Source: Candidatus Heimdallarchaeota archaeon
GTDB taxonomy: Archaea; Asgardarchaeota; Wukongarchaeia; Wukongarchaeales; JBHIFL01
NCBI GenBank assembly: GCA_046761065.1
Contig: JBHIFL010000005.1
Coordinates: 1-64,000 of the forward strand
DNA length: 64,000 nt
Reading direction: 5' to 3'
A model generated the notes under the pieces. It did not search any database, was not told where the DNA came from, and saw only the letters and a list, made by a program, of their open reading frames with translations. This document shows, in pieces, positions 1-20,192 of the stretch (position 1 is its first letter; every line of letters begins with the position of its first letter). The position numbers were made by a program, and so were the translations under genes.

Positions 1-101
1 GCGAGGCGATCTGGGCGGATGGGCGGAAGGGGCTCTGTGCCCGGATCAATCCGCATGCGACCATTCCGGAGCGACGAGTGGTCTTGCGAAAAGTAATCTA
101 G
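1..101 (+). repeat. Phosphoesterase 3'-end repeat, copy 1 (cut by window edge)
   Basis: Reads EAIWADGRKGLCARINPHATIPERRVVLRKVI*; homologous to copies ending at 2556, 10819, 13476, 15600, 17147. Confidence 0.9.
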
Positions 102-463
102 GGAGAAGTTAGGAGGGTGGAAGAGGAACGGAAAGAAAATTATTAAGAGGTAGATCATACACAGGAGGAGATTGTACGGTGAGAAAAAGGCTAGCACATT
201 ACGAATCATTGCAGAGAACGTATGCTGTTCAATCATCGTTCCTATTCCCTAAGTTCAATCCATTCTATATGCAGAAGGAGTCAGTGATGGCAGGTCACCC
301 GTTGTGGGTGAACCGAAAAGTAAACCATACATTGGAATAAAGCGATGAAGGAGGTTTAAACAGAATATTTTGAGTATTATGATACTATCCAATCTTTAAG
401 AAGGAAAGAAACGTTTAATAAAAAGTTTATTACATCATATTCAAACTGGAGAGTTGAGAGTAG

Positions 464-1483
464 ATGGGCCGAAATGAAAGAATGCAACTCATCCGTGCTA
501 TTGAGGAAGAAAGAAATTCACGAATGCTTGTATATCTTGCAGGCGATCGGAGAGGTTTGGAAACAAAAATTGCTGCAGATATCTTCCCTTTTATTTTAAA
601 CCATCTATCAAGGATGGATCGCCAAGAAACGATAGATCTATATATCTACAGTACTGGGGGAGTGACAATGGCTGGTTACGCCCTCGTAAATCTCATTCGC
701 GAATTTTGCAACACCCTAAATGTTATCATCCCCTTCAAAGCGTTGAGTTGCGCAACCCTCATTGCCTTAGGAGCAGACAGTCTAATTATGACCGAGATGG
801 GACAGCTGAGTCCAATTGATCCATCTGTTAATTCACCCCTTGGTCCTCGTGCTCCAGCGCCTGGGCCCCCGGGAGCATCTAGGGTTATCCCTGTAAATGT
901 CGAAGATGTTGTTAGCTACTTGGACCTTGCCAGAAAAGAGTTAGGAATAGCGGATGAGGAATCCCTAACAGCGGTCTTTGATCACCTAGCAGAAGCTGTT
1001 CATCCGCTAACGCTTGGAGCTGTTAACAGAGTACGGGAACAAATAGCGTTTCTAGCCAAAACTTTGCTATCATATCATCTAGATGACCAAGAGCAAATTG
1101 AGAAGATAGTTAATATCATCACTACAGGTCGCTTTTCGCATGATTACTTGATTGGGCGGAAGGAGGCAAAGGAAACTCTTGGTCTGAATATCATTGACGT
1201 ACCAACAGATCTCGCTGAGAAAATCTTTAAATTATATCGTGAATATGATCAGGTAATTGAATTGAGTGTACCATATCATCCTGAAACTGTACTTACCACA
1301 ACTGATGTGGCGGTTGGAACTTTTAATCGTGCAATTATTGAATCAATTGATATGACTCATGTCTTCCGCACAATAAAAGAGGTAACAAGAGTTGAAGTTG
1401 GCCCCCCACAAATTCCTGTTCCAACTGTGGGCTATCAAGAACGTATAATAAGTGAAAAATGGGTGGAAGACAACACGATTTAG
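464..1483 (+). CDS. SDH-family ClpP-fold serine protease
   Basis: LYIYSTGG, ALSCATLIALGAD...GQLSPIDP and SHDYLI motifs typical of SDH_sah/ClpP-like proteins. Confidence 0.8.
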   Translation: MGRNERMQLIRAIEEERNSRMLVYLAGDRRGLETKIAADIFPFILNHLSRMDRQETIDLYIYSTGGVTMAGYALVNLIREFCNTLNVIIPFKALSCATLIALGADSLIMTEMGQLSPIDPSVNSPLGPRAPAPGPPGASRVIPVNVEDVVSYLDLARKELGIADEESLTAVFDHLAEAVHPLTLGAVNRVREQIAFLAKTLLSYHLDDQEQIEKIVNIITTGRFSHDYLIGRKEAKETLGLNIIDVPTDLAEKIFKLYREYDQVIELSVPYHPETVLTTTDVAVGTFNRAIIESIDMTHVFRTIKEVTRVEVGPPQIPVPTVGYQERIISEKWVEDNTI

Positions 1484-1533
1484 AGAAAAGTTAAAAAAAG
1501 GAAAGGACCTAAATTAAGGTAGGGGATCTGAAA

Positions 1534-1812
1534 ATGGCCGATGAAAAAATTATTGAGAATCCAGAACAAGGAACTGCGGGCTTAACTTCTGCGCTCCAAC
1601 TAACCAACACAACAAGTGCTATTAGTTATGCTAGTGACGCTTGTTCCGATTCCACAGAACTATTGATAATCATTCCTGCAACAAAAGAAGAACACATTCA
1701 GTTTCCCCAAAAACCAGAACCATATCTCTCGCGAAGGCAAAAGTTCAGAAAAGCTCTGGAAGAATCTTCAAAAAGAAACAAAGATATTTTTGAGGAGCTT
1801 GCAAAGTACTAG
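1534..1812 (+). CDS. Putative antitoxin of the downstream Doc toxin
   Basis: Small ORF directly upstream of Fic/Doc; C-terminal helix KRNKDIFEELAK resembles Doc antidote tails. Confidence 0.45.
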   Translation: MADEKIIENPEQGTAGLTSALQLTNTTSAISYASDACSDSTELLIIIPATKEEHIQFPQKPEPYLSRRQKFRKALEESSKRNKDIFEELAKY

Positions 1813-1822
1813 TGAATTTGAA

Positions 1823-2227
1823 ATGATCTATTTGACTAAAGAGGAACTAATAGAAATTCATGATCAACTCATCAAGCAATTTGGAGGCAGTTCAGGTATA
1901 CTGGCCCCAGAAAAGATTGAGCTATGTATCAAAGCTCCTCGTCGTATTATTTTTGGAACTATGGTTTATGAGACCGTATTTATGAAGGCTGCGGCTCTAA
2001 TCTACGAAGTCTGCAAACTACATCCTTTTGTTGATGGAAATAAGAGAACCGGCTATGGAGCAGCAGATGTGTTTTTACGATTGAATGGATATATCTTGAG
2101 AGCTGATAAAGACGAGGCAGTAAAAAAAACTATAGCAATAGCAAGGTGCACCATGGATCGTGATGCGACTGCTGAATGGATAATTGCTCACGTGCAAAAA
2201 AATTTCGATGGTTTGTCTGAAGATTGA
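1823..2227 (+). CDS. doc: Fic/Doc family toxin
   Basis: HPFVDGNKRT Fic motif; MIYLT..ELIEIH..LI..FGG N-terminus; start placed at ATG 1823. Confidence 0.9.
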   Translation: MIYLTKEELIEIHDQLIKQFGGSSGILAPEKIELCIKAPRRIIFGTMVYETVFMKAAALIYEVCKLHPFVDGNKRTGYGAADVFLRLNGYILRADKDEAVKKTIAIARCTMDRDATAEWIIAHVQKNFDGLSED

Positions 2228-2406
2228 ACCTTGAATAAGTAAAAAACGCTAGTTCTTGCTATTAATATCAAGCAAAACCGTAAGAAGAGTATTATTGCTA
2301 CTTTGGCAATGAACATTATGTTGAAGGGTTAAATAAAGGATACTCCATCTGACAATCGGGAGTTTGAAATGGCTCTTTCAGAGGAGGAATTGTATCTTTT
2401 CTTGAG

Positions 2407-2556
2407 GAAGTGTGTAGCACGACCGATCGAGTTGTGCGGGTTGGGGTCATGGCGGACGAGGCGATCTGGGCGGATGGACGGATGGAGCTCTGTGCCCGGA
2501 TCAATCCGCATGCGACAATTCCGGAGCGCACCGTGTGGTTGAGAAAAGTGATCTAG
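2407..2556 (+). repeat. Phosphoesterase 3'-end repeat, copy 2
   Basis: Ends ...CGLGSW..EAIWADG...ERTVWLRKVI* (aaagtgatctag). Confidence 0.9.
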
Positions 2557-2673
2557 GAGAGGTTTGGAGGATTAGGGAGGGACGTACCGCAAGAAAAGGT
2601 GTTCACGGAGAACCTTAGGAGTCTCGCTGGAAGGTGGTAAATCATTATTTTATCAGCCATATAGGTAGGCGGT

Positions 2674-2849
2674 ACGCAGTCAACTATCACGCAGTCAACT
2701 ATCACCATGCGGTGAACTGGCTCAAGAAGGCTTGTGCTGCATACTTAGTCGCCGATCGCCAAGCGGAGTGGGATAAATACTTGGCTGATCTCCTCACCCA
2801 GCACAAGCGCAAGTACAAACTGGTACCGATGTTAAAGGAGTTGCAGTAA
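2674..2849 (+). pseudogene. C-terminal fragment resembling SWIM zinc-finger family proteins
   Basis: YHHAVNWLKKA...W..YL..L...HKRKYKLVPML; 5' part missing; preceded by a 15-bp tandem duplication ACGCAGTCAACTATC. Confidence 0.5.
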
Positions 2850-3015
2850 ACTCAAGAGAGTAGAAATCCCTCCACGGAGCGCACCGGGATGCAGATAAGA
2901 GGCAGACGCTTGAGCGCCTGTGGAACTTTGCCAGGTGTTCAAATAAAAGTCTTATAGCACCATAGTTTCAAACCAATCTCCTTTTTCCATATCCTTCCTT
3001 TGTTGGAGAAAGATG

Positions 3016-3090
3016 ATTTGGATAACGTATTATCCAAATTTTTTAGAATATGGATATTCTATTATCCAAAAATTCAATAATATGGATAAT
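3016..3090. promoter_or_regulatory. Repeated palindromic operator-like sites upstream of the AAA ATPase
   Basis: ATTTGGATAA-CGTA-TTATCCAAAT (3016-3039), TGGATAT-TCTA-TTATCCA (3051-3068), half-site TGGATAAT (3083). Confidence 0.5.
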
Positions 3091-3103
3091 GAATTAGCCA
3101 AAT

Positions 3104-4609
3104 ATGGTGAGAATTAGCGAGATCGTAAGCCAAAATCCTTGGTGGAAACACGAGAAAGGCTTCGTCCGTTACGATAGACTCTTTTCCAAAGCTCGAGATA
3201 ACCTTATTTTCTTTACAAGAAGGAGTTTTGAGATCATTAAAGAGAATATCTATGTTATTAGAGGATGTAGACAAATTGGTAAAACAACCTATCTTAAAGA
3301 ACAAATAAGACGTTTAATTAATGCTGGTTTTGAGCCTCAAAAAATCTTGTATCTCTCTTTGGATTTCTTCATTTCAAGAAGGGAATTAAGGAATGCTGTG
3401 AGCTATTTCCTTGACATCAACCGGGAGGCGGAGGAGCTTTACATTTTCTTGGACGAGATAACAAGTGTACAGGATTGGAACCTTGAATTAAAGTATTTTT
3501 CGGATTCGGGCGCCATAAAGAGAGCAAAAATTATAGCTACGGGTTCCAGCGGTGCAGCCTTGAGGCGAAGAGGCGAGCTCTTACCGGGAAGAGGGTTAGA
3601 GGGTAACGAATATCATCTAAGACCTTTGAGCTATAGAGAATTCGTCTTGCAGACGATAGAGTACATAGTGCCCTATGTCCACGAAAAGGAGTTTCGTGCG
3701 TCCCTGGATCGCTTAAAAACGAGTCTTCCTGAGGCCACCATCGTCTTAGACTGGGATCTGGATAGAATATACAAACAAGTGAGTCGAATCACTCCTTTCA
3801 AAAAGGAGTTAGAATACCTTCTGAGAATTTACCTCACCACCGGGGGCTTCCCACAAACCGTAAACAATTATTTGAGAAGCAAATTTACCGAAGAGAAGGA
3901 AGTGATTGATCCCGATTTGGTAGAAATATTCGTTAGAAACGTGGTAGGAGACGTGACAAAGCAGGGGAAACAAGAGGCATTTGTCCGCCAGCTCCTCCAA
4001 GAAATTATCGATAAATATGGAACACGATACAGCTTTAGAAAGCTCGCGAAGGATGTCGGGATCACCCACTCCACAACAATCGAATATTTGGAATTGTTGC
4101 AGGAGTCCTTTGTTTTTACCGTACTGTATTCCTATGACTTCAACAAGAAAGCCATCAAATTCCGCGGCGCCAAGAAAATTTATCTCCAGGACACCTTCAT
4201 CTACTTTTCCTTGGCGAGTTTTCTGACCGGCCGGGACCTCAATGACATCATTGCTGAAACGCTGCAAAATGAAGAATCATTAAGCAAAATAGTCGAGAGC
4301 GTCGTCTGTTCCCATTTAATAATGAACCGAGAACGACCAATTTTAAGGGAGCCCAACACATTTCTCTGGTTCTACTATGAGGCAAGAGGCAAGGAAATCG
4401 ACTATATATTATTAAGATCCGATGCATCTTACTTAGGACTCGAGGTAAAATACCAAAGTCATGTAAGTTTTAAAGATATTTCGACGGTCTCTCCAGTCAA
4501 ACAATACATAATTCTCAGCAAAGAAGACATCAGCAAAGAGGAAGACGTTCTGATGGTGCCTATAGAGCTTTTTCTAGCCTTACTAGAAACATCTAGCAAC
4601 AATTTATAA
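3104..4609 (+). CDS. AAA_14 / DUF4143 ATPase
   Basis: QNPWW, Walker A GCRQIGKT, Walker B IFLDEI, TGSS, GGFP, C-terminal EIDY...EVK. Confidence 0.9.
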   Translation: MVRISEIVSQNPWWKHEKGFVRYDRLFSKARDNLIFFTRRSFEIIKENIYVIRGCRQIGKTTYLKEQIRRLINAGFEPQKILYLSLDFFISRRELRNAVSYFLDINREAEELYIFLDEITSVQDWNLELKYFSDSGAIKRAKIIATGSSGAALRRRGELLPGRGLEGNEYHLRPLSYREFVLQTIEYIVPYVHEKEFRASLDRLKTSLPEATIVLDWDLDRIYKQVSRITPFKKELEYLLRIYLTTGGFPQTVNNYLRSKFTEEKEVIDPDLVEIFVRNVVGDVTKQGKQEAFVRQLLQEIIDKYGTRYSFRKLAKDVGITHSTTIEYLELLQESFVFTVLYSYDFNKKAIKFRGAKKIYLQDTFIYFSLASFLTGRDLNDIIAETLQNEESLSKIVESVVCSHLIMNRERPILREPNTFLWFYYEARGKEIDYILLRSDASYLGLEVKYQSHVSFKDISTVSPVKQYIILSKEDISKEEDVLMVPIELFLALLETSSNNL

Positions 4610-4869
4610 AGAACATAGACTAATTAACTGTATTTACTTCTTTTCTAACCCCAATTAATCAATTGATGACATATTTCTAACCATAAATCATCCATCTGAG
4701 GGTATCTCAGTATTTTCATCAACTTTTTCTCACATCCATCAAATCCTATATCACGATGATCGAATACGAGAAAACGGTTTGATACCCGAGGTTCTCCTCA
4801 TGGACCCAGTGGGTTGCATTAAGCCGCCCCATTTCCAACCTTCTTTCTTATTAAGATGATTCGCCAAGT

Positions 4870-4963
4870 GGATCGAGACGTTGACCAGAATGAACCGAGT
4901 GGGATTGAAAAAGCGCCCTGAAGACAAACAAGCAAAAGGAAGAGACGATACGTGCCCAATTAA
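4870..4963. repeat. ~95-bp diverged dispersed repeat, copy A (partner at 7315-7408)
   Basis: Both copies share GGATCGAGA..CAGAATGA.CCGA.TGGGATTG...CCTGAAGACAAA...AGACGATACG.GCCCAATTA. Confidence 0.75.
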
Positions 4964-5521
4964 CTTCTTGGTTTTACAAAGCAAAGATGACAGGAAGGAG
5001 AACACGAAGGAGGAGGAAGAGAAGATGGAGCACGGCGATGATACTGACTGAGACAACGAGGACGACGAAGAGGAGTCGGTTATTCGGTTTCCCCTCAAGG
5101 AAAGGAGGGTTAGGGGATTGCCGAAGGATCCAGCCAGCGCCCCGGCTGAAATTCGCATAAGCAAAAAGATCGACAAGCAAGGGAATGAAGCCATGGAACA
5201 GACGAAACAGTCAGGAAGAGAATGGGATTCTTATCTAATAGAGCCTATAAGTTTCGTGGCTCGCTTGAGGGCCTGAGCACAGCCATAAAGGAGCAATCCA
5301 ACAGCGAGAAAAAGGAAAAGTTTATAGAGGCGAGGAAAGACAGGGCGTAGTCGAGAGAGATGAGATTGACGTAAACCAGTTTCCTAGGGTGCATATCCGA
5401 ACACAAGGCAAGTCCCTCTCTCAAACACTTCGGAATATTTTGGACTCACGCTCAATCTGTCCATAAGATTGATAAACAGGAAGCTTAGTAAAGGAGTTTC
5501 GAGAAAAAAAAGGCGAAGAGA

Positions 5522-6610
5522 ATGAGCTGGGACGAATTCTGGGCGCAATTTGAAGCAGCGGACTATGGGGAGAAGCTCTCAATTTCTCACGAATATCTTA
5601 ACGGTGTCGATGCAACTAGAAACATGGTCTTCGAAATGCTCTCGGTGCTGCTGACCGAAACTAGAACGAGAGGGGACTATGAGACCTTCGCCGAGCTGGT
5701 TGAGCGCGTGAAAACCATGCATCCCGGGATATACAAGGAGGATGCGGTCTTTTACAGCATGTTCTTGGTGGAGAACATGGCCCTAGAAGGGGAATTCAAA
5801 GACCTCGCGATTGTCTTGGAGCCCTTCGCTCAAGACCCCGAGGCAATTGACGAGTTCATCCGGGTCATCGAACTCTTGATGTACCACTCACGTACGGAAC
5901 CACTCCTCGAGGTTATGAAGGAGGTCTATCCGAAGGTCATGCGTTCTGATGAAATCATTCCTCCGGGGAAGGACGAGTTCGCCTACCGCCTAGGTATGTT
6001 CATAATATTCAAGGGACTGGAGAAAGGTGTAGATCGGAACACGATTCATAGCGAGGTTGCCAATTATTGGAGTGCGGTATCCAAGACCTACGTAAAAGAT
6101 CTAGTTGCGAGGCTGCAGGGTGAGATTTCGGAGAGCTGGCGTCGAGAGGAGTTCATCAAAGGCATTTTGAAGAAGAAGGAGATAGCGGAGAAAATCCTCA
6201 ATCTGACCCTAGACTATATGCGCAGGTTAACTGAAAGGGGCATGAGCTTCAGTAGGGCATTGCTCGCGAGGGATTCCCTGGTGGAATACCTCTTAGGACG
6301 TGAGCATTACCCGCGCGTTAAAAAAGGCGGGCATTTACTCCTCCCGATGAAGGCACCCCTCGACAGGCACTTCGCAAACTACCTGAGCTTCCTGAATCAC
6401 CTACCCTATCGCGTCGCAAGCCTGATAGAAGCATTACCCGGATACTACGAGTACCTCATCGACAACGGGCTGATAGATGAGACAGAATTCAGGAGGAAGC
6501 TAAAAGCCATTAAATCGTTGAAGGAGGACGTCATGAACTATTTTAGTAGCGCATCCGACTTGGAAAAAGAGATCCTCAGCGACATAGAAGCCGCTTGGAG
6601 GGAATATTGA
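5522..6610 (+). CDS. Hypothetical alpha-helical protein
   Basis: 362-aa ORF with protein-like composition; no recognised motif. Confidence 0.7.
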   Translation: MSWDEFWAQFEAADYGEKLSISHEYLNGVDATRNMVFEMLSVLLTETRTRGDYETFAELVERVKTMHPGIYKEDAVFYSMFLVENMALEGEFKDLAIVLEPFAQDPEAIDEFIRVIELLMYHSRTEPLLEVMKEVYPKVMRSDEIIPPGKDEFAYRLGMFIIFKGLEKGVDRNTIHSEVANYWSAVSKTYVKDLVARLQGEISESWRREEFIKGILKKKEIAEKILNLTLDYMRRLTERGMSFSRALLARDSLVEYLLGREHYPRVKKGGHLLLPMKAPLDRHFANYLSFLNHLPYRVASLIEALPGYYEYLIDNGLIDETEFRRKLKAIKSLKEDVMNYFSSASDLEKEILSDIEAAWREY

Positions 6611-6664
6611 GGGGATGGTGTGCTTTCCCTTGATCACACGATTAACAACAAAAAAGATCAAGAA

Positions 6665-6841
6665 TTAGTGTTTTTCCTGTTCTTTCTCGTGCTTTGCTTT
6701 CTCATCAAGTACTGTCTCTAGGGCTGCATCCAAATATTCGAAAAGGCCTTCCCAGTCATCAATAATGCCTGATCTTTAATGTTTCAGAAATTTTTACTTT
6801 ATTTATTCAAACTAAGACATTCAAACCACTTTCTTCGCAAC
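6665..6841 (-). pseudogene. Degraded copy of the JAB-protein tail (VAKKVV*) plus its ~52-aa partner gene
   Basis: MS*FE*IK*KFLKH*RSGIIDDWEGLFEYLDAALETVLDEKAKHEKEQEKH*, homologous to 19233-19403. Confidence 0.7.
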
Positions 6842-7001: not shown

Positions 7002-7215
7002 GTGAACTACTCCGCCACAAGGGACGGGGCTTCATCCCTTGCACGCTGCACCACTACCAAGTTCCTTTGGGGGACGATGTTCACTGGGGAGGTTCTGGGG
7101 GGTTCACGGCTCCCCCTGCGGCTCAGCATGTAGCCGAGCAGCCTGGCTCCAATGTGGATGGTGGCATTCAAATCGCGATTATAGTTTGACCCATATACAC
7201 ACACGAATCTTATTT
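7002..7215 (-). mobile_element. IS200/IS605 remnant: tnpB 3' end and right end
   Basis: FVC...NRDLNATIHI (RuvC-III-like) and terminal hairpin GAAGCCCCGTCCCTTGTGGCGGAGTAGTTCAC. Confidence 0.8.
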
Positions 7216-7314
7216 TGCTCACCTTGCTATAGTTGCAGGATCCGAGTATATAATCACAATTGGCAACTTGCGAGTCAAAGATTCTGCTACGCGTTTATCA
7301 CACCTGTCTCCAAA

Positions 7315-7408
7315 GGATCGAGATGTCCAGCAGAATGATCCGATTGGGATTGTAATAGCGGCCTGAAGACAAAAATGCAGCAAGAATAGACGATACGCGC
7401 CCAATTAC
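7315..7408. repeat. ~95-bp diverged dispersed repeat, copy B
   Basis: Homologous to 4870-4963. Confidence 0.75.
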
Positions 7409-7659
7409 ATTAATATCGATCTTGCCATAATTTATTCCTGCCATTAACGAGTTCCGAAGCAAATTATCGAGTTTGTCGGAATCCAATTGGCTTGATATGA
7501 TTTGATTGTGTACCATTGATTCATTGTTACTCGATCTTGTCGACGCATTGGGAATTAAAGGGGAGATTATATATTTTTCCCTATTCATTAGTAAATTGTC
7601 AAGAAATTCTAATAAAAAAGGAAAAAATTATAAAACAAATTAAATCTATTGTTCAATAG

Positions 7660-8898
7660 GTGCAGGAAATGGACCGAGCTCTAGAGGCATATGTTTCCCG
7701 GAACATTCGAACCATTTTCGGAGAATACTCGCTCGTAGCCGTAAATGAGGGCTTGCCGGGTCGAATTAGAATAGATTTTCACTTCAAAAAGCAGGATGGA
7801 ACCGACGTATTCATTGAAGTTTCTACCCGGAAAATAGGGCGAACCAAACTTGGGAGCATAATTGCCATGTATTCGGCAATAGCCAGTATGGAGCCACCAC
7901 TTAAGAAGTTTGAAATGATTGTGATAGGACCCGAGGTGGGGGCATCTGCAAAAAAAGAACTCGAGAGACTCCCAATAAAGGTACTGACATACGAACAAGT
8001 CGGAATAATGCGTCAAAAGCATCTGGAAATGCGGGGAGAAGAGTGGCGACGACAAGAGAGACCGCAGGAGAAGGCACCATTGGCACCGGACGAGGCCAAG
8101 CTGGTAGCTAGATGGGAAGCTGAGAAGAAAACGACGATTCGCGCTTCGGAAGTACAGGTGGCTCTGGGTTGCACCCGGAATTACGCGCGGGGCCTTCTTT
8201 ACAATCTTGAACGCAAGGGCTGGGTGGAACGAATCACGCGAGGGCTCTATCAATTTATCCCGCTAAGCTATGGATTTCCGAAAAAAATGCCTCCGTCAAA
8301 TGCGTTCGCAATAGGGGCGGCGCTCGTAGAACCGTACTATTTCAGCTACTATACCGCGAATAGCCACTATGGATTCACAACGCAGATACCGTTTACGATC
8401 TTCATTGCAACGACTAAGAAGAAGCCGGAAGTTGAATGGGCGAGCAGTACATTCAAATTTGTCACCCTCACCGAGCGAAAATTCTTCGGATACAGGCGAG
8501 AAAAGGTCTTCGATAGGGAGGTGAATATGGCTGAGCCGGAGAAATCCTTGGTAGACTCATTTGACAAGCCAAGATATAGTGGCGGCATAGAACAGCTGGT
8601 CAGGATCACGTGGCGTGGGCTTCGCAGAATAAACCCGGAAAAGCTTGTGGACTATGCAATAAAGATGAGATCGCATGCGCTAGTCCAGAGAATGGGGTTC
8701 ATTATTGACTTTCTGGCAAGGGAAGGACTAATAGAACCATTCCATCGCAGTCTCCGAGATGAGCTTCTAGCCCATGTTGGAAAGGGAATAATATATCTGG
8801 ATTCGCGAAAGCCAAAGACGGGGAGATTCAGAAAAGAATGGAAAATAATGAACAACGTCCCAAAGTCCCAGCTACTGAGCGAAATCGAGGTAAGGTGA
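7660..8898 (+). CDS. Type IV TA antitoxin AbiEi with an extra N-terminal restriction-endonuclease-fold-like domain
   Basis: wHTH LERKGWVERITRGLY, YFSYYTA...YGFT.QIP, EPEKSLVD; N-terminal IDFHF...VFIEVS. Confidence 0.8.
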   Translation: MQEMDRALEAYVSRNIRTIFGEYSLVAVNEGLPGRIRIDFHFKKQDGTDVFIEVSTRKIGRTKLGSIIAMYSAIASMEPPLKKFEMIVIGPEVGASAKKELERLPIKVLTYEQVGIMRQKHLEMRGEEWRRQERPQEKAPLAPDEAKLVARWEAEKKTTIRASEVQVALGCTRNYARGLLYNLERKGWVERITRGLYQFIPLSYGFPKKMPPSNAFAIGAALVEPYYFSYYTANSHYGFTTQIPFTIFIATTKKKPEVEWASSTFKFVTLTERKFFGYRREKVFDREVNMAEPEKSLVDSFDKPRYSGGIEQLVRITWRGLRRINPEKLVDYAIKMRSHALVQRMGFIIDFLAREGLIEPFHRSLRDELLAHVGKGIIYLDSRKPKTGRFRKEWKIMNNVPKSQLLSEIEVR

Positions 8899-8904
8899 GT
8901 TGAA

Positions 8905-9798
8905 TTGCTGGAGAGAAACCACGTTGCGTTTTATGCGAGGACCAGCGGAGTTCGGGAGGAGATTGCCAAACGAGACGTGGTTCTAACGTATGTGTTACGG
9001 ATCCTGTTGGACAGTATATTGCCACATCTCGCGTTAAAGGGTGGGACCTGGTTTAAAAAAACATACTTCGGCAAAACTGGGAGATTTTCAATGGATCTTG
9101 ACTTTACAAGCGTGGACCTAAGCTGTGAGAAACTCCAAAGTCGGATTCAGGATTCACTGGACAATAAAACGAGCTACGAGTTGGATTTTAAGATAGTCGA
9201 AGAAAATTTGCGACCTGACGCGTATCTGGCTGTAGTTAGATATGCACATCATTGGAACGAGGGCTCCCAGTTCGAGCTCCAAGTCAGTTGCCGAGAGAAG
9301 CCGCTCTTGGAAGCAGTTAAATAGCGGCTTATCGACGAGATGTACTGGAAATACTGTGTCCATGAGTTTCAAAGATTTTCGGTTTGGTGCCTGCAAAAAG
9401 AAGAGGCTCTTGCCGAAAAGATCAGGGCAGCATTCCAAAGGATGCGAAGCAGGGACTTGTACGACCTTTACCTATTTACCGAAGTACCCCATGATAAGGA
9501 TGCTGTAAAGACATTGGTGGTCATAAAATGCTGGAATGCTAGAGTCGTGTTTGATCCCGGAACACTTCTGGACAAAATAGTGAATGCGGGTCAGGATTGG
9601 GACAATCTACAAAGGCTTGTCCGGAGGGGGAGTCTCCCTTCACGAGATGAAGTAATCCCCGCAGTATTGAACCACTATGGATTCTTAGAAAATTTGGATA
9701 AACAACTTATTAAAGTCGTAATAGACTCTAAGGCGCACCGAGAGCGCAAACTTGTAGAAAAACTTGTTTTGGACTTATCAAGGCAGTTTGGAGCATAA
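8905..9798 (+). pseudogene. AbiEii nucleotidyltransferase toxin with one in-frame TAG at 9322-9324
   Basis: LKGGT, RFSMDLDF, AEKIRA, RDLYD motifs; the two ORF halves share one frame. Confidence 0.85.
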
Positions 9799-10164
9799 AA
9801 TGTTTTTTCCATTTAAGCTAAGGCAAAAACGGAGGATAGCTAAAACAAGAAGGTCAAGATCTGGTACATGTTTCAGTTCACTCTTTCAGAGAAAAGGAGC
9901 CAACCCCATTGGGAAATCGTGAAACGTGCGATCATGAGAGAACCAAAGGCAGAATTGTATGTAAGGACTCTCCTAGGGGATATTGTTCGGGCTATCACTT
10001 ATCAATGAGGTGTTTTAAGCTGGTCAAGGTACCCAGCCCGTGGTTGCTTGGCTCCTAAGCAACTGTAGTCTTCGAACTAAGACCTGTGGTCTTTCTACGA
10101 AACGAAAGTTACCATCCAAGCGATGTGAAGCAAGTGATGGAGGTATTAAGGGAGACGGTGGACC

Positions 10165-11618: not shown

Positions 11619-13010
11619 ATGAGCCTCTCAGACCTCTTAACCCAACCGGAAGGAAAAAGTCTCGAATTCAAAGAGAAGGTTCCTGAGTCTTTAACCCTAG
11701 CAAAGACGGCCTGCGCCTTCGCCAACGGCGGTGGGGGGACGATAATAATCGGGATGCGAGACAAGGACCGAGCCATCGTAGGACTGGAGGAGGGGAAAAT
11801 CCCCGTACTGGAAGAGAAAGTGGCGAACATCCTCCATACCACAGTTGAGCCCATGGTGGCGAGCTACATCACAGTACACAACCGCGAGGGAATGCTGATT
11901 TTGAAGGTGGACATCTTCCCTGGCAGCATGAAACCCTACCACCTCAAGGGCAGGGATGAAGTGGAGGGGACGTATATCAGGGTGGGGTCCACCAACCGGA
12001 AGGCAGACCTGGAAACAGTAGAGGAGCTACGCCGCCAAAGGATGAATATATGTTTTGATGAAGTTGCGGTGCTTGAGGCCAGGGAAGAGGAGCTTGACCA
12101 TGAAAACATCAAATACTACCTCAGGAAAAGGCGAGAGGTGAGGGATATTCCTGAGGTTGAGATGACCAGGGATTTTCTAGTGAAAATCAGGGCATTGAAG
12201 AAAATCGACGATCATGCTTATCCGACGGTTGGAGGGCTACTCCTCTTTTCGAAGGATCCCACGAAATATCTCTCTAGTGCTGTGGTGAAGTGCGCCAGGT
12301 TTAAAGGGCAAGAGATGGATGAGTTCTTGGACCAGAAGGAAGTGGTTGGGCCCCTCTTCAAGCAGGTCGAAGAGGTGATAGCTTTTTTCAGAAGAAACGT
12401 CCGGAGAGGGGCAAAGCGAGAAGGAGTATACAGGAAGGAAGAATACGAATATCCCTTGGGAGCAGTGAGGGAGGCAGTAGTCAACGCGATATGTCACCGC
12501 GATTACAGCAGGAGGGGCGCTGACATCAAGTTTGCCATCTTCGACGACCGCCTAGAAGTGACGAGCCCGGGACCCCTACCACCTCAGATTTCCCTGAGGG
12601 ACCTGGGCACTGGGGTCTCTGAGTTGCGCAACAGGGTAATTGGCAGGATATTCAATGAGATAGGGCTGATAGAAGGTTGGGGAACAGGAATAAGGCGCAT
12701 CAAGCAACTTCTTGAAAAGAGAGGGTTAAAACCACCGGAATTCCAAGAACAAGCAAACTTCTTCAAGGTCATCTTTTTCAGCGAACCCATAATTTCGGAT
12801 TTGGATGACGATGAGAAAATAATCTTGAAGTATATCAAGAATCATGGAAGGGCGCAAACAAAAGAGCTAGAAAACGAAACAGGGAAAAGCGCCTCCACAA
12901 TCAAGAGAAAAATCAAGCGCCTCGTGGGTAAAGGCCTCCTCCAATGGAAAGGCAAGAGCCAGAAGGATCCAACAGGATACTACGTCCTGACAAAACATGA
13001 GCTAGTATGA
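11619..13010 (+). CDS. Schlafen/AlbA_2 domain + RecG-like C-terminal ATP-binding domain + HTH
   Basis: EGKSLEFK, AFANGGGG.IIIG, REAVVNAICHRDY, SPG, RN..I...F...G.IE..GTG. Confidence 0.9.
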   Translation: MSLSDLLTQPEGKSLEFKEKVPESLTLAKTACAFANGGGGTIIIGMRDKDRAIVGLEEGKIPVLEEKVANILHTTVEPMVASYITVHNREGMLILKVDIFPGSMKPYHLKGRDEVEGTYIRVGSTNRKADLETVEELRRQRMNICFDEVAVLEAREEELDHENIKYYLRKRREVRDIPEVEMTRDFLVKIRALKKIDDHAYPTVGGLLLFSKDPTKYLSSAVVKCARFKGQEMDEFLDQKEVVGPLFKQVEEVIAFFRRNVRRGAKREGVYRKEEYEYPLGAVREAVVNAICHRDYSRRGADIKFAIFDDRLEVTSPGPLPPQISLRDLGTGVSELRNRVIGRIFNEIGLIEGWGTGIRRIKQLLEKRGLKPPEFQEQANFFKVIFFSEPIISDLDDDEKIILKYIKNHGRAQTKELENETGKSASTIKRKIKRLVGKGLLQWKGKSQKDPTGYYVLTKHELV

Positions 13011-13046: not shown

Positions 13047-13143
13047 CCCGTTGGATTCTGTGATTCTTTTTGATATTTTGCCAGAATGGGTGTCCCTTCA
13101 CTTGGAACGCTCCCAAGACATCCCACACCTAGTTCGAGCCATA

Positions 13144-13476
13144 TGGGGACTGCGATGTGCTGGTGATCCACAGGGATGGGGTTGGGGTCGAAGCGGCGGT
13201 GAACAAATACGATGGAGCCAACACGAAAGCCCTGCTAGAGGTGAAACAAGAGCTAATTAAGAACGGCCACCCGCAGTTTCCGGCAATTTCTGAAAAAGGC
13301 TGGCTGATGACGAGCCATATCGATAATGGAGTGTGCAACGCGTCCCATCAGGTGTGTGGTTGGGGTCGTGGCGGGGAGAGGCGATCTGGGCGGATGGGCG
13401 GAAGGGGCTCTGTGCCCGAATCAATCCACATACGAAAATTCCGGATCGACGAGTAGTCTTGAGAAAAGTAATCTAG
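13144..13476 (+). repeat. Phosphoesterase 3'-end repeat, copy 4
   Basis: GDCDVLVIHRDG...WLMTSH...RRVVLRKVI*. Confidence 0.9.
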
Positions 13477-13603
13477 TCAGGAATTTGGTTTTAGTGATTT
13501 CCCCAACTCGGCTTTCAAACATTAAATATCCCGATTCTTATAGGAAATGAGGATAACATCTTGAAATCGAATGAGCGGGATTCGGAAGACCTCGAACATA
13601 TTA

Positions 13604-13662
13604 TTTTCGCTGCCGTTAAACCAGTGAATGGAAACGGGATGAGAACTATTTTTTCCCTTCAA
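13604..13662 (-). pseudogene. MazF/PemK toxin N-terminal remnant
   Basis: MKGK/IVLIPFPFTGLTAAK with a +1 frameshift in an A run, then truncated; overlaps the upstream gene stop. Confidence 0.65.
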
Positions 13663-13847
13663 TGGTATCTAACCTTGAGATCCTCAATTGAGTACAGGTT
13701 TGGTTCGCGTTTGAAGGACTCTCGAAGAGATTTCTCTGCCAATGTCATTATGGACAAAGTCTCTTGGTGCTCAAGCAATAAATCCAGCTTCATGTTCAAT
13801 GCCACAAGAAGTTCCTTGATCTCTTTAACATCCGCGTCAATTGTCAT
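13659..13847 (-). CDS. Small putative antitoxin of the MazF remnant
   Basis: 62 aa ending LAEKSL..F..EP.LYS.EDLKVRY, translationally coupled to the MazF remnant. Confidence 0.6.
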   Translation of the reverse strand: MTIDADVKEIKELLVALNMKLDLLLEHQETLSIMTLAEKSLRESFKREPNLYSIEDLKVRYH

Positions 13848-14580
13848 TGTTTTCCCTCTACATATTATAATGAAGAAAACCAAGGGAACTTATTAAATTT
13901 TATGATAACTCGGCAGGTATTCCTAAAATTGGAAGGGAGCCATACGGTTTAACCGCGATTAAGGGATAATTCTTTTGTAGTCTGAACATGTAAAAAATAA
14001 TCTCAAAAATGTTCTTTACTCGACAAAAAACCAGTTGTCCCTTCCACACACCAAGAATCCATCATTTGACCGTTGGGAGACATCAGATCCTCCTTCCCCC
14101 AGGGGATTAGAAGCATCATGTGCTACTAAATAACCCATCTCCTCGTCACCACTTGACCCCAAAACTGGTCTTAACTTCCGTGGGGGGGGTGGACTTGTAC
14201 GGTACCACAATTCCCCTTTTTCATCCAGAAATTCAAGATGAATCCACAACACACACTCTAATGGTAGGAAGCCAGCCACTTCAAGCGATCCAGTAAAAAA
14301 AATGGAATTTACACAGACCCCGTTCATTGTATCAGCCTTGTACCACTCATAGCTCTCATAATTCCTTCTAGATGGGAATCACATATAGTGTTTGACTTAA
14401 TGCGTCAGAGGATGAACTATGTAGGTTCCTATGGGAAAAAGTTCCAATCCCAACTCCTAATCCGTCAAAAGAAGAAAGGGAGATAGTCAAAACTTTTGTG
14501 ACTTGAGTTCGATGAAATTGAATTAGAGTATTTCCAGGTAAACTCTTAAATATTCGAAAAGACTAAATTTATCTGGTGAA

Positions 14581-14826
14581 TTGCTCGTGACAGAAGAAGG
14601 GGTGGTTGGCTCGAAAGGGGAGCTGTTTCCCCCCAAGAAGATTCGGCAAGAGGTCGGACTGATTCCAGGTCGTCGGATCAAATATGAAGTGAAGGATGGG
14701 CTTCTGATTGTAAAACCGATCCTAGAGATCCTTGAAGTGTTGGAAGAACCACCAATTGCAACAATCACCCTTGAGGAAGAACGTAAGCTGCGGAAAGAAA
14801 TTTCGAAAGAGATAGCGGAGCAATAG
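14581..14826 (+). CDS. AbrB/MazE-type antitoxin
   Basis: VGSKGELFPPKKIRQEVGL.PG; directly upstream of a PIN gene. Confidence 0.85.
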   Translation: MLVTEEGVVGSKGELFPPKKIRQEVGLIPGRRIKYEVKDGLLIVKPILEILEVLEEPPIATITLEEERKLRKEISKEIAEQ

Positions 14827-14829
14827 CCG

Positions 14830-15294
14830 TTGCGAGTCTTTCTGGATACAACCTACCTCATGCCAGTTTGTGGGGTGAAGATAAAAGAAATCCAAAACAC
14901 ACACCTAACACGCCTCTTTGAGCAGCGAAGGACTATGATCAATCAAGTCTCTTTACTTGAACTGTGGGGCAAGGGCAAGAGGCTCCTCCGTGACGACCCG
15001 GAATCTTGGCCTCGCTTCCTGATAGGCTATCGGAGTATCCTTGAATCCCAGACGATCCAGAAGCAAGCCATAATTGAACCAGAAACGCTCCCGTGGGTGG
15101 ACAAGCTGTCGAGGGAGGGGCTTAGAGATCTTCTTGATTGTTTCATTACAGCCTCGGCGATTTATCATAGCGATGTCTTGGTAACGGAAGCCCAAGATAT
15201 CACCAAAATTGTGGAAATCCTCAAAGAGAAAGGGGAACCGGAAGTCAACCTTCAAGCACTGCCGCTGAGAGACTTCCTCCAGCAGTATGCTTGA
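14830..15294 (+). CDS. PIN-domain (VapC-like) toxin
   Basis: FLDTT, SLLE, DLLDCFI.ASA, LVTE. Confidence 0.85.
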   Translation: MRVFLDTTYLMPVCGVKIKEIQNTHLTRLFEQRRTMINQVSLLELWGKGKRLLRDDPESWPRFLIGYRSILESQTIQKQAIIEPETLPWVDKLSREGLRDLLDCFITASAIYHSDVLVTEAQDITKIVEILKEKGEPEVNLQALPLRDFLQQYA

Positions 15295-15373
15295 CAGACA
15301 CATCCGTTAAATTCCTTGATCTAATATGTTGTGTGACTCTCTACAATTATTTGCTTAAATGAACTTTGGAAGA

Positions 15374-15600
15374 AGCTGATTAAGAACAGTCACCCGCAAC
15401 TACCAGCTATCTCCGAAAATGACTGGCAGATGACGAGCCATTTCGATAGTGGGGTGTGCAACGCCACGTATCGGATGGGCGGGTTGGGGTCGTGGCGGGG
15501 TGAGGCGATCTGGGCGGATGGGAAGACGGGGTTCTGTGCGTGCATTGATCCGTAAACGCCCATTCCGGAGCGAACGGTGTGGTTGAGAAAAGTGATCTAG
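15374..15600 (+). repeat. Phosphoesterase 3'-end repeat, copy 5
   Basis: LIKNSHPQLPAISENDWQMTSHFDSGVCN...GLGSWRGEAIWADG...TVWLRKVI* in one frame, with an internal TAA. Confidence 0.9.
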
Positions 15601-15995: not shown

Positions 15996-16544
15996 TTATC
16001 TAATAGAATCAATAAGTTTCGCGGCTTCTAAAATTTCAGTGCCTTGTTCTGCTTTCAGCTTGTATCTCCGCTCACCAAGCTCGTCGATTGCGGATTCGAT
16101 GCCAGAGAGTTCGATGAATCCTTTGCGGAGGGCTTCTAACAAAATAGTCCAAGTGTTCCAGACCTCAAACCCGTACATCTTTGCGAGATCGGAGAGAACC
16201 TTCTCATCAATTAAGACAAGCTCCGCCTTATTTTCCTTGGCGACCAAGAGTGTCTCTGCGTCGGATTGCGATATGTTTTCGCCTTCCACCAGCCTTTTGA
16301 CGGTTGAAACCGCCGCCTTAGGAATATCTTTAATGAAAATCCAGCCTTCATCGATGGTTTGTTTCACGAGCATAGCATCATCGTGGCCGCATTTGAGTCC
16401 CTCATCAACAACTTCCCTCTGAACTGCCGGGGTAATCACTACGCGATTGAAAAGCGTCTTAAGAAGGAGCAGCTTGTTTATCTGAGCTAAGTGAATGAGT
16501 GGTCCCGCATCGGATACCACCAAAGGCAAGGGCTTATTCCCCAT
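15996..16544 (-). CDS. PIN-domain protein (DUF3368 type)
   Basis: VVSDAGPLIHLAQI, PAV..E, DAE.L, LIDE. Confidence 0.85.
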   Translation of the reverse strand: MGNKPLPLVVSDAGPLIHLAQINKLLLLKTLFNRVVITPAVQREVVDEGLKCGHDDAMLVKQTIDEGWIFIKDIPKAAVSTVKRLVEGENISQSDAETLLVAKENKAELVLIDEKVLSDLAKMYGFEVWNTWTILLEALRKGFIELSGIESAIDELGERRYKLKAEQGTEILEAAKLIDSIR

Positions 16545-16836
16545 ATCTTGTTTTCAAGTAATCCTTGACGATTTTCGAATCCCAGTTGACAGGGATCCCT
16601 TCCCGCTCCAGTAGCTCCAGGAACTCCCGGAGGGAGATTTTGAGTATCTCAGCAGCTCTTGAAGCCGTTAATCGCCCGGTTCTGTAGATGTGGATGATCC
16701 TTCGGCGGAGGCCGTCCTCAATGAACTCCTTAAGTAACCGTGTTCGGTCAATGTCCTCGAGGGCTCTCACATCTTCTATGCGTTCTAACTCCCGGCGGGA
16801 AATCCGCATAGTAATTACGGTACTCTTTTTTGTCAT
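16534..16836 (-). CDS. UPF0175 family antitoxin
   Basis: Y..G.LT.SRAAE.L.ISLREF.ELL; overlaps the PIN gene. Confidence 0.8.
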   Translation of the reverse strand: MTKKSTVITMRISRRELERIEDVRALEDIDRTRLLKEFIEDGLRRRIIHIYRTGRLTASRAAEILKISLREFLELLEREGIPVNWDSKIVKDYLKTRYGE

Positions 16837-17011
16837 ACCTATCAAAATAGGGTATATTACATTGTAATACATAAGTCTTTCCCAAACGGTTAGAAGTGCC
16901 ATTCGTCGGGGTGGGAGCATCCAGGGTCACCTTCCACAGTCACACTAACACCCGCACCTCATCCTGGGGCGCGACGCGTATCTTGAAACCCCCGCGCACA
17001 TAGTTTGCGGT

Positions 17012-17147
17012 GACCGATCGAGTGTTCGGGTTGGGGTCGTGGCGGAGAGAATCGATCTGGGCGGATGGAAAGAAGGGACTCTGTGCGTTCCTTGATCCGC
17101 AAACGACAATTCCAGAACGAACCGTGTGGTTAAGAAAAGTGATCTAG
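17012..17147 (+). repeat. Phosphoesterase 3'-end repeat, copy 6
   Basis: TDRVFGLGSWRRESIWADGKKGLCAFLDPQTTIPERTVWLRKVI*. Confidence 0.9.
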
Positions 17148-17802: not shown

Positions 17803-18045
17803 GTGGTCATGGTAATAAAGGTGGGTTCGGGGCGAAGGATTTACTTACCAAAAACGATTCAACTAGAATCGGATCGTTTGATCCTGCTCCCCTTCGGAAC
17901 GGGATATCTGTTAATTCCCGTACCGGCCGAAATCAGAGAGATTGAAACACCATTGACGCGAAAAGAGTTAAAGGAGCTCCGGGATCGAGCTGCTGCGGAG
18001 GATGCTAAACGAATCCTCGATGTTCCGCCCCCAGAGGAGGCCTGA
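17803..18045 (+). CDS. AbrB-like (VapB) antitoxin
   Basis: KVGSGRRIYLPK; 2 bp upstream of a PIN gene. Confidence 0.75.
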   Translation: MVMVIKVGSGRRIYLPKTIQLESDRLILLPFGTGYLLIPVPAEIREIETPLTRKELKELRDRAAAEDAKRILDVPPPEEA

Positions 18046-18047
18046 AG

Positions 18048-18470
18048 ATGTTAATTGAAACGGATCTTCTGTTTGCATATCTCAAAGCGGCGGATTGGCT
18101 AAAACAGGTAGCCAGCGAAATTATTGAGCAAATCGAACGGGGGCAGTTAGCTCCCGTCCAAGCAAGCGCGGCCGTCTTGCATGAGCTGTTTTATGTCCAG
18201 ATTGAATATTTGTCGCTGGATGCGACGATTGGAAATTCAGCACAAATTATGGCGCTAAGTAACCTCGAGTTTCTGCCAGCAACAGCTGAGACTTATGTCT
18301 CTGCCATGGCCCTAATGAAGACTTATGCCATCTCTTCCATATTTGATGCCATTCATGCGGGGACCGCCCTTGGAGCATTAGCGAAGGATAACAAGATCAT
18401 CTCGACCGATCCAGTCTTTGATCGCATTCCAGATTTGGAACGAATTGATCCGAGAGATATAATCTCTTAG
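18048..18470 (+). CDS. PIN-domain (VapC-like) toxin
   Basis: MLIETD, LHEL, FDAIHA.TA, IISTD..FD. Confidence 0.85.
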   Translation: MLIETDLLFAYLKAADWLKQVASEIIEQIERGQLAPVQASAAVLHELFYVQIEYLSLDATIGNSAQIMALSNLEFLPATAETYVSAMALMKTYAISSIFDAIHAGTALGALAKDNKIISTDPVFDRIPDLERIDPRDIIS

Positions 18471-18506
18471 GCACGAAGCAGATTATTATAGGGAATCTCA
18501 TTCATA

Positions 18507-18624
18507 TCGAAGAGGTGATAGCTTTTTTCAGAAGAAACATCCAGCGAAGGGCAAAGATAGAAGGAGGATACAGGAAGGAAAAATACGAATATCCCTTAGG
18601 AGCAGTGAGGGAGGCAGTTGTCAA
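18507..18624 (+). repeat. Orphan internal fragment of an AlbA/RecG-like gene (homologous to 12368-12485)
   Basis: Both loci share TCGAAGAGGTGATAGCTTTTTTCAGAAGAAAC...GAATATCCCTT.GGAGCAGTGAGGGAGGCAGT.GTCAA. Confidence 0.85.
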
Positions 18625-19232
18625 AGGCGAGACGTGTTACGGAGTTACCGAAAGATCCGGGTAATGCTCCTCGCGCAATTCGTTTAAGCGACGAGCTCCA
18701 TAAGAAAAGCCATGAAGCCTGGAAATGTGCCAAAGAGTCTGGGAATGAATGGGGCTATTTCATTCATGTAGCTGAGGAGGGACAGCTAATTGCGGGGAAA
18801 TTGAAAGAAGGTACCCCTCACGAGTGGATTCGCTTTGAAGAGTATATGAAAGCACGAAAACAAGATAAATCCATCCAAGGCCTTATGCATACACATCTCG
18901 AAGAAGAAACCGTATTTAGCCCCTCCAACATCGGGTTTTTCCTTGCGGCGAAGGAGTCCATCTGTAAGAGCATAGATCTGCAAGGCAATTACCTCATAAT
19001 ACTGCAAAACGAACAAACAGATCCTCTTCGGGAAGGAATTTTTGAGGAGGTCACCCAAGTATATACAGCTGTGGCCAGAGAAAAAACAAAACAACATATC
19101 ATGGAAAACGAGCTGGATAGGAAAGAAACCATAAGGAGAGGCATGGTTGAAGCGATGATAGAAGTATGCAAATAATATAATATCGCCTTGTATAGAGGGA
19201 TGATCAAGAAGGTTGCAAAGAAGGTGAGGTGA
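18618..19232 (+). pseudogene. JAB/MPN-like domain protein, 5'-truncated, internal TAA at 19173-19175
   Basis: E-W-G...HTH-x6-FSPSNI (canonical Asp replaced by Asn); reads on as YNIALYRG...VAKKVR*. Confidence 0.6.
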
Positions 19233-19403
19233 GTGTCGAAGTCAGAACAACTAAGGCAAAAATTTCTGAAGCGTGCAAAAGAACAAATGGGCATATATGA
19301 TGATTGGGAAGGCCTGTACGCCTATCTGTTGCGGTTGTAGATGAGGCGCTGGAAGGAAAAAGCTAAAAAAGAGAAAGAACAGAAGGAACAGGCCAACACT
19401 AAT
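19233..19403 (+). pseudogene. Small partner gene of the JAB protein (frameshifted)
   Basis: MSKSEQLRQKFLKRAKEQMGIYDDWEGLYAYL...; starts immediately after the JAB stop codon. Confidence 0.55.
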
Positions 19404-19584
19404 TCTTCCATACATGCGGCTACTTAGGACACACCTCCCGAAGTTCTTCTGGGGCATTTTTGGACACTCATTTCTGAATCTCCTTTTCAAAATGAACGTC
19501 TCTCCAAAGGGTGAGAGAGGTATGCAGTATAATATTGCCTTGTATAAAGGAGAAAGGGGGATAGCCGCCAAGAAGGTGGTCTAA

Positions 19585-19743
19585 ATGTCGAAGGCACAAC
19601 AACTCTTACAAGAGCGGTTAAAGCGTATCAGTGAAGGAAAGTATGGGTGCGGCATCAAAGGCTTTTATGAGCTTATGGAAGCCTTCGCAGAGGAAGCTTT
19701 GGAAAAGATAGCCAAGAAAAAGAAAGCACAAGCCAAACACTAA
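19585..19743 (+). CDS. Intact 52-aa paralog of the JAB partner, preceded by an orphan JAB tail (QYNIALYKG...AAKKVV*)
   Basis: MSKAQQLLQERLKRISEGKYGCGIKGFYELMEAFAEEALEKIAKKKKAQAKH*. Confidence 0.6.
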   Translation: MSKAQQLLQERLKRISEGKYGCGIKGFYELMEAFAEEALEKIAKKKKAQAKH

Positions 19744-20192
19744 TGGTCCGCCTTTAGAGCCACTTAACTCCCTTGAAATGCTTTTTTCAAAACAACTTCA
19801 ATTTTCAATGTCCCGTAACACTTTGCTGAAGAGGTACCCCACCATTGGACTGCGACATATATTTCCCGTACAAGCAAATAAGATGGTCTTTATCATCCGG
19901 ATTCCTTCTTGAAATATAGCAGAAAAATGTCCTCTGTGGATTATAATTCTTTTAGTATCTCAACGAAATGCACGGTAGAACTGTATCTGGTTCTTTTTTC
20001 AAATGTTAAGAAAAGACATGAATGCCCGAGATTTCCTCTCCCAGAGTAGACTCCTTCGAAACGTTAAATGAAGGGAAATGTTAAATTGAAACCAAAGCTT
20101 TATAAAAGTTAGCAAATTAATAATTATATGAACCAGAATGGAGAAAACTCCATAGAAAGTGATCACCTAAAATTAGAAATTGGGAGAAAAAA

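Follow-up and report, generated by a model that had tools for sequence, protein, structure and literature searches.

The first 64 kb of contig C5 (hereafter the window) of a metagenome-assembled genome (MAG) of the Asgard archaeon Candidatus Heimdallarchaeota (4.42 Mb in 234 contigs, 8.2% contamination, from a hydrothermal-vent metagenome) begins with six same-strand copies of the 3' end of one phosphoesterase gene, between which lie different blocks of toxin-antitoxin and defence genes. We propose, at a probability of about 0.55, that host homologous recombination is the main force in the accretion and shuffling of this array: gene tails together with the cargo behind them would have been added from relatives and then eroded and shuffled. 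The anchor gene is not a housekeeping gene; it is the last gene of an operon of the Asgard RAMP (ARAMP) type, and the layout is not special to it. If this reading holds, Asgard archaea would build and reorder defence islands without a dedicated integrase, using diverged gene tails as portable homology. Since the array sits directly behind an unexplained Cas1 system that has no CRISPR array, element ends and the gene tail become candidate substrates of its Cas1-family protein (aCas1).

Diverged gene tails with a common stop

The six copies (C5 1-17,147, BLASTN) all end at the same stop sequence, AAAAGTRATCTAR, and are pairwise 74-93% identical, in agreement with the initial annotation of this DNA. 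Intervals between copies are 1.4-7.6 kb, and copy lengths across the arrays described below are 89-706 nt. Scattered copies, which would have spoken against an array, were found nowhere else in the whole 4.4-Mb assembly, and 200 shuffled windows gave 0 matches. The intact gene, encoding 218 aa, was found in three other assemblies, strains A (GCA_046758425.1), B (ERZ23499107) and C (ERZ23499174, identical to SRR10836661 over 11.9 kb). Copy 3, the sole full-length copy, matches Metallophos (PF00149, Pfam) and is the pseudogene it had been taken for, broken by frameshifts near gene nt 26 and 539 and by a stop at codon 59.

Copy 1 had been counted as a displaced copy, a view that we revise. It shares 95% identity with the intact gene end of strain C, including the same 168-nt tail; this MAG yielded no emg1, which forms the left flank of the locus in strains B and C; and in the source run an intact-looking phosphoesterase gene start is present as a loose end. 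These observations suggest that copy 1 is probably the end of the intact gene, truncated by the contig start, and that the operon lies on a missing contig. A search to the left of the window for an intact phosphoesterase had been suggested as a check; the contig starts inside copy 1, and the intact gene, with its Cas1 operon, was instead recovered in the three relatives.

The tails carry the mark of selection on coding sequence. Over 109 codons copies 3 and 4 differ by 29 synonymous and 22 non-synonymous changes (synonymous divergence, dS, 0.53; non-synonymous divergence, dN, 0.09; dN/dS 0.17), which upholds the earlier view that they diverged as coding alleles. At dS values of 0.44-0.48, dN/dS is 0.22 between intact genes, 0.26 between intact genes and fragments, and 0.27 between fragments. 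The low ratios at like dS indicate that the tails derive from different functional alleles, each tail having apparently spent most of its history in a working gene, a different allele in each case. No tail is closer than ~83-88% to the gene of its own strain. Tails that come from working alleles, none of them a recent copy of the strain's own gene, argue against duplication of a target and against polar acquisition dependent on Cas1.

The tails are mosaics. The 5' part of copy 2 is of the strain-C type, while its last 30 nt and the DNA behind them are of the strain-A type; nearest neighbours switch along the tail; and in the last 86 nt all four gametes are seen at 213 of 528 informative site pairs, a count to which recurrent mutation may contribute. 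In another sample of the same study (run X4), a unitig is 100% identical to window positions 286-2528, continues with 13 letters of a third anchor type and then enters the tail of copy 5, an anchor-to-anchor joint seen as contig evidence in one run. Both the mosaic haplotypes and this read-assembled joint favour the role as recombination anchors that had been proposed for the tails.

Neither side of the tails appears to have a fixed crossover. The tails begin at 11 different breakpoints, at distances of 89-706 nt from the stop, and downstream of the stop homology extends for 0-271 nt, except where a whole cassette is shared; erosion may mask an original boundary. Upstream of the tails no shared left-hand attachment sequence was found. 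The proposed lack of attC sites held on two counts, folding z-scores of the anchor ranging from -1.3 to +1.2 and compensatory change being seen in 0 of 18 pairs. No IntI or other tyrosine recombinase was found near the array, either on this contig or among the called genes of the relatives' loci; PF00589 matches in the assembly occur on C94, C32, C178 and C216 only, and three tyrosine recombinases lie above the cut-off. Terminal inverted repeats and target duplications were not evident at the paralogous loci or in the window, where the ends are old and eroded.

Four housekeeping genes of this assembly show the same layout: asnA (named by NCBIfam) and radA, an NAD synthetase gene and a 2-oxoacid oxidoreductase subunit gene (named from motifs) each have a diverged 3' copy 1-6 kb downstream, behind cargo, which in two of the four cases includes PIN/antitoxin genes. 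In these tails the proportion of synonymous differences is 0.23-0.40 vs 0.09-0.17 for non-synonymous ones. Since the layout recurs at these genes, it appears to reflect a general process in this organism for which Cas1 is not needed.

Cassettes and their order in four strains

Behind the same gene, the window and strains A, B and C carry 5, 3, 5 and 1 displaced tails, respectively (Table 1). The order of the cassettes, a point that the initial annotation had put forward as a check, differs between strains. Shared cassettes are 92-96% identical and the core operons 87-91%, from which we infer that cassettes moved after the cores had diverged. The window region 2426-6688, around cassette b, is 96.4% identical to strain A; cassette c is 93-95% identical to strain B; and cassette e is 94.7% identical to strain A, where PemK persists. 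Cassette b moves with the 3' part of the preceding tail and cassette d with the 5' part of the following one (breakpoint at gene nt 322-324 of the copy behind it, in strains A and C), as expected if crossovers occur inside tails. Erosion is visible as well: behind the AbiE block the window has a full gene but strain B an 89-nt tail, the junction before tail B5 arising from that before copy 3 by a nested deletion. An anchor accompanies the HEAT block in strain C but not in strain A.

That all this is a chimeric or collapsed assembly is almost certainly wrong. The MAG is fragmented and partly contaminated and its contig begins inside copy 1, but unitigs assembled independently from the source run cover the array almost without gaps, at an even depth of 34-53x and with at most 1 difference each, copies 2 and 6 being spanned by single unitigs; moreover, the copies are 7-26% diverged and the same architecture stands in three other assemblies.

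Table 1. Gene tails, cassettes and array order. Coordinates without a contig name refer to the window; in array rows a slash marks a phosphoesterase gene tail between blocks.
Feature	Coordinates	Strand	Description
Copy 1	1-101	+	last 101 nt of phosphoesterase gene, truncated at contig start
Copy 2	2410-2556	+	begins at gene nt 511; mosaic
Copy 3	10116-10819	+	whole phosphoesterase pseudogene and ~48 nt of helicase 3' end
Copy 4	13144-13476	+	begins at gene nt 324
Copy 5	15367-15600	+	begins near gene nt 422
Copy 6	17010-17147	+	begins near gene nt 520
Cassette a	464-2227	+	SDH-type protease 464-1483 (Pfam); 92-aa open reading frame (ORF); Fic/Doc 1790-2227 (Pfam)
Cassette b	3104-6610	+	AAA_14/DUF4143 ATPase 3104-4609 (Pfam); 362-aa ORF without assigned function 5522-6610
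Cassette c	7315-9839	+	AbiEi 7660-8898; AbiEii, split, 8905-9324 and 9340-9798 (Pfam)
Cassette d	11619-13010	+	AlbA_2/RecG-C/HTH protein (Pfam)
Cassettes e, f	13606-15294		MazEF remnant 13606-14429; AbrB/PIN pair 14581-15294, weak Pfam matches
Cassette g	15996-16920	-	UPF0175 16534-16920 (Pfam); PIN-like protein 15996-16544
Cassette h	17803-19743	+	AbrB-like ORF; PIN 18048-18470 (Pfam); AlbA fragment; 185-aa ORF; 52-aa ORF
Extra variable DNA	19750-23700		includes actin gene 20193-21332
Tail, NAD synthetase	C11:7777-7946		displaced tail
Tail, 2-oxoacid oxidoreductase subunit	C13:58503-58893		displaced tail
Tail, asnA	C23:24980-25125		displaced tail
Tail, radA	C140:273-410		displaced tail
Window array			a (protease, Doc) / b (AAA_14, 362 aa), c (AbiE) / d (AlbA) / e (MazEF remnant), f / g / h
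Strain A array			e / b, HEAT, d / 281-aa ORF, 52-aa ORF / second AbiE, JAB-like
Strain B array			two ORFs and Cas5-like remnant / second AbiE / NosD / NosD / HU, c /
Strain C array			HEAT, d / repeat proteins

Much of the cargo had been named correctly: the SDH protease, Fic/Doc, AAA_14 with DUF4143, AbiE, AlbA_2 with RecG-C, UPF0175 and the PIN protein at 18048 are all matched by Pfam. The PIN proteins at 14830 and 15996 and AbrB at 14581 fall below the Pfam cut-off, the MazEF remnant takes its identity solely from strain A, whose corresponding block contains a PemK gene, and Pfam and NCBIfam searches gave no family match for AbrB at 17803 or for the supposed JAB protein, the 185-aa ORF of cassette h, which is JAB-like by eye only. 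The AlbA gene fragment of this cassette is 127 nt long, and its 52-aa ORF recurs at unit ends in strains A and B. The variable region, which had been taken to end at 19,750, runs to ~23,700, strain C realigning with the window only at ~23,612-23,700. The actin gene within it is 88% identical at the DNA level to a second actin on C42; it is present in the window and in strain A and absent at that place in strain C.

The ARAMP operon and the proposed growth of the array

In strains A, B and C the phosphoesterase is the last gene of an operon in which it is preceded by aCas1 and by a YprA/MrfA-type helicase (756 aa, DEAD/Helicase_C/MZB). The large aCas1 protein has 1404 aa in strains B and C and is truncated by the contig start in A; its gene ends 2.9 kb upstream of the phosphoesterase stop in all three. 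On the opposite strand lie a Cas7-like gene and a partner gene, followed by emg1 in B and C. A search of Pfam and PADLOC with the single 1404-aa protein missed Cas1, and a four-sequence profile found nothing in the PDB, whereas a profile of the C-terminal part built from 36 relatives matched the casposase 6OPM, its best solved-structure sequence match (E 1.5e-7), and also Cas1 chains. Eleven members of the family match PF01867, and a structure model (pLDDT 82) retrieved Cas1-family proteins for all of the top 50 Foldseek hits. The metal-binding E, H and D-x-x-E/D positions (E1152, H1241, D1254 and E1257 in the relatives, the gene not being on this MAG's contig) are kept in 35 of 36 rows and in all strains. 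Judged by sequence and predicted structure, aCas1 is a Cas1-family integrase with an intact active site. The array had been called integrase-less, which stands for the array itself and for tyrosine recombinases on this contig, but not for the locus as a whole, since the three relatives encode this integrase upstream.

A profile of 11 Cas7-like homologues matches RAMP/Cas7 chains (E 2.5e-5 and 3.4e-4); the 324-aa Cas5-like partner has no NCBIfam match and shares homology with the partner genes of all loci of this type. Repeat scans and self-BLAST of the window and loci revealed no CRISPR-like repeat family, no dedicated CRISPR finder having been run. The operon fits the Asgard RAMP systems, which have a Cas7-like gene and a distinct Cas1 (Makarova et al. 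2020, as summarised in PMC8730458), in its Cas7-like gene, partner gene, divergent Cas1, lack of a CRISPR array and restriction to Asgard archaea. It differs in that its last gene anchors a kilobase-scale cassette array, of which that summary makes no mention. The aCas1 family occurs in 13 of 400 genomes of the phylum; the other aCas1-helicase-phosphoesterase loci examined have no array. A DNA search of 40 related GTDB genomes gave no match, and scans of JGI metagenomes, by protein and by pattern, gave nothing.

On the features tested, the array is not an integron, a casposon or a CRISPR array. Like an integron, it yields toxin-antitoxin and defence cassettes in an ordered series that varies between strains, but it has no IntI, no attC hairpin, and multi-gene cargo blocks on both strands. 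Casposons share with it the Cas1 domain and tandem stacking at one site (PMC9939771); unlike them, it has units without a transposase and shows no evident terminal inverted repeats or short fixed target duplication, and no family B DNA polymerase was found among the called genes within 10 kb of aCas1 in B and C. Its long, diverged repeats and kilobase-scale spacers are unlike the short, near-identical repeats and uniform spacers of CRISPR arrays. Closer are two other systems. In the tandem accretion of integrative and conjugative, integrative and mobilizable, and cis-mobilizable elements (ICEs, IMEs and CIMEs) at a gene 3' end (model of Pavlovic et al. 2004, as reviewed in PMC5704250), units likewise stack behind one gene with co-oriented gene-end copies between them and older units decayed; here, however, the units have no cognate site-specific recombinase and no evident fixed crossover, and the tails are 89-706 nt long, come from many functional alleles and are reshuffled internally. 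In the lpl cluster of Staphylococcus aureus (PMC2568036), a conserved coding segment is the site of homologous recombination that shuffles the gene 3' part and the DNA downstream; its repeats are intact paralogues, whereas those of the present array are dead tails with unrelated foreign cargo on either side. By analogy, the array may work like 3'-end tandem accretion combined with lpl-type shuffling. The literature searched, a coverage that leaves out most subscription papers, holds no description of this layout in archaea, and the keyword-matched passages of two papers on Asgard mobile elements (PMC8813620, PMC11529989) describe integrase- or tRNA-linked elements and no such array.

We propose that the array grew in four steps, the first and third of which are seen in the sequences. 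(i) The resident ARAMP locus, emg1 followed by the Cas5-like and Cas7 genes and, divergently, by aCas1, helicase and phosphoesterase, occurs in numerous allelic versions, ~87-91% identical, with different DNA behind each phosphoesterase. (ii) DNA of a relative, carrying a 3' piece of the gene and the cargo downstream, would be added and not exchanged, most simply as a circle, in which the end of the cargo would have been joined illegitimately to a point within the gene; a single homologous crossover in the tail would then give the gene a new 3' end and displace the old one downstream. (iii) Later deletions shortened or eliminated tails, and crossovers within tails carried cassettes from strain to strain. 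(iv) Addictive toxin-antitoxin cargo would favour addition over replacement, and long repeats would collapse, leaving short tails only. Cas1 may have mobilised the locus and may supply some of the circles, the layout being independent of it.

Several points weigh against this proposal. No circle or integration event was observed; an integrase catalytically intact by sequence is encoded in cis; and one genome has ARAMP blocks at several of its loci. The fusion of tail B1 to a Cas5-like piece in reverse orientation and the helicase DNA retained in copy 3 both point to whole second elements. The housekeeping cases have one tail each and were chosen by eye from 26 raw matches (the control orientation gave 15, among which inspection by eye showed no housekeeping gene), and only 18 codons underlie the case of the NAD synthetase. 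Tail B1 would be explained if the history was mixed and some of the incoming circles were complete ARAMP elements.

Among the alternatives, it is possible, though rather doubtful, that the array consists of decayed tandem ARAMP elements, siblings excised or inserted by aCas1 in casposase fashion and stacked here, whose 7-10 kb cores were deleted down to the gene tail. Such elements would account for the low dN/dS equally well, and tandem casposons have been described (PMC9939771). One genome (G040) carries ARAMP blocks of 5.4-7 kb, 77-87% identical, at three different loci, and the present one contains a paralogous operon on each of C12 and C36 as well as, on C87, a remnant with two ends. Truncated ends of the same kind are seen for the other arm of the element at ~44 places, six of them in tandem on C115; B1 meets its reversed Cas5-like piece at a microhomology of a few bases, in the arrangement expected of an internal deletion, and copy 3 has kept its helicase DNA. 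Against this, the 11 breakpoints are all confined to the last 706 nt of a 7.1-kb core (p ~1e-11 under a uniform distribution), no aCas1 or Cas7 remnant occurs in any array, and the Cas5-like piece is only 71% identical to the resident copy, against 87% for the gene tail fused to it. Terminal inverted repeats and target duplications were not found, ARAMP operons elsewhere lack an array, and the housekeeping genes are left unexplained.

Unlikely, too, is a site-specific recombinase acting in trans, from a helper virus, a plasmid or the host's own tyrosine recombinases, that inserts small elements with a replacement 3' end, erosion having blurred the sites. The geometry of ICE/IME/CIME accretion (PMC5704250), the three tyrosine recombinases above the cut-off on other contigs and the last 13 nt of the gene, which are nearly invariant, speak for it; the crossovers at several positions, the missing common left-hand attachment sequence and the absence of integrase remnants among the called genes of the four arrays speak against it, and five unrelated target genes would require five specificities.

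It is likewise improbable that the aCas1-helicase-phosphoesterase operon is a whole-gene adaptation module that captures or re-inserts kilobase-sized defence cassettes at its own operon end with the tail in the role of a CRISPR repeat. The corresponding route, in which aCas1 integrates gene-sized DNA in CRISPR style and, assisted by the helicase, duplicates a target that is long and variable, we hold to be very unlikely. The Cas1 fold with its conserved residues lies in cis to a repeat-cassette array in a system that has no CRISPR array, but a duplicated target should begin identical to the resident gene and then drift neutrally, unlike the tails, with their divergence from the strain's own gene and dN/dS of 0.26. 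Known casposase duplications are ~15 bp (PMC9939771), and the layout recurs at genes without Cas1. A Helitron/IS91-like rolling circle with a CTAG end was dropped, as the large ORF has a Cas1 domain, no HUH match was seen and homology passes the stop; so was retroposition of 3' ends, which leaves the strict clustering behind the parent gene unexplained.

Other ARAMP loci and smaller repeats

The genome of the window contains two more complete ARAMP operons of other subtypes (C12:5803-16079 and C36:12840-23553; aCas1 28% identical) and a remnant that retains both ends only (C87:1082-2273). In G040, four helicase-Cas1/Cas7 blocks at different loci (L037-L040, L042, L053) each end in a 90-150 bp repeat, and duplicated repeats flank small inserted ORFs in G040 and G316. 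Strain B alone has, upstream of emg1, a gene for a 1803-aa DEAD/Helicase_C/MZB helicase (L060:1-4258), a domain set that we take to be Druantia DruE-like.

A repeat of ~180 bp terminates the Cas5-like gene and is found at ~44 places genome-wide, often directly before a start codon, with a sharp 3' end and a variable 5' length. It has no Rfam match, nor did Rfam match anything on five loci. Copies lie in the window at 25326-25410, 32791-32926 and 41941-42123, and six stand in tandem amid toxin-antitoxin genes at C115:1654-9037. At the left end of the ARAMP locus (L060:6679-6737, L013:7168-7214) the repeat is followed by 59 nt antisense to the interior of emg1 (83% identity, mostly synonymous-looking differences), perhaps a flank that acts like a guide or else what an earlier insertion left behind; a second copy overlaps the 5' part of emg1 in strain B. 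A guide targeting the phosphoesterase was sought in the repeat flanks and none was found.

Smaller repeats in the window comprise one inverted pair, one direct pair and one AlbA gene fragment (6660-6848/19205-19407, 4870-4962/7315-7407 and 12367-12484/18507-18624), which may also be recombination points. Three 32-nt tandem units with a palindromic core at 3016-3111, just 5' of the AAA_14 gene, are possibly operator sites, and a minus-strand stretch at 7007-7222, with no Pfam match, resembles on visual inspection what is left of the C terminus of an IS200/IS605 TnpB. ARAGORN, which may miss intron-containing or partial tRNA genes, predicted only a tRNA-Ile (53193-53270) in the window; 29-nt tRNA-end-like repeats occur at 26246, 32466, 44610 and 53024.

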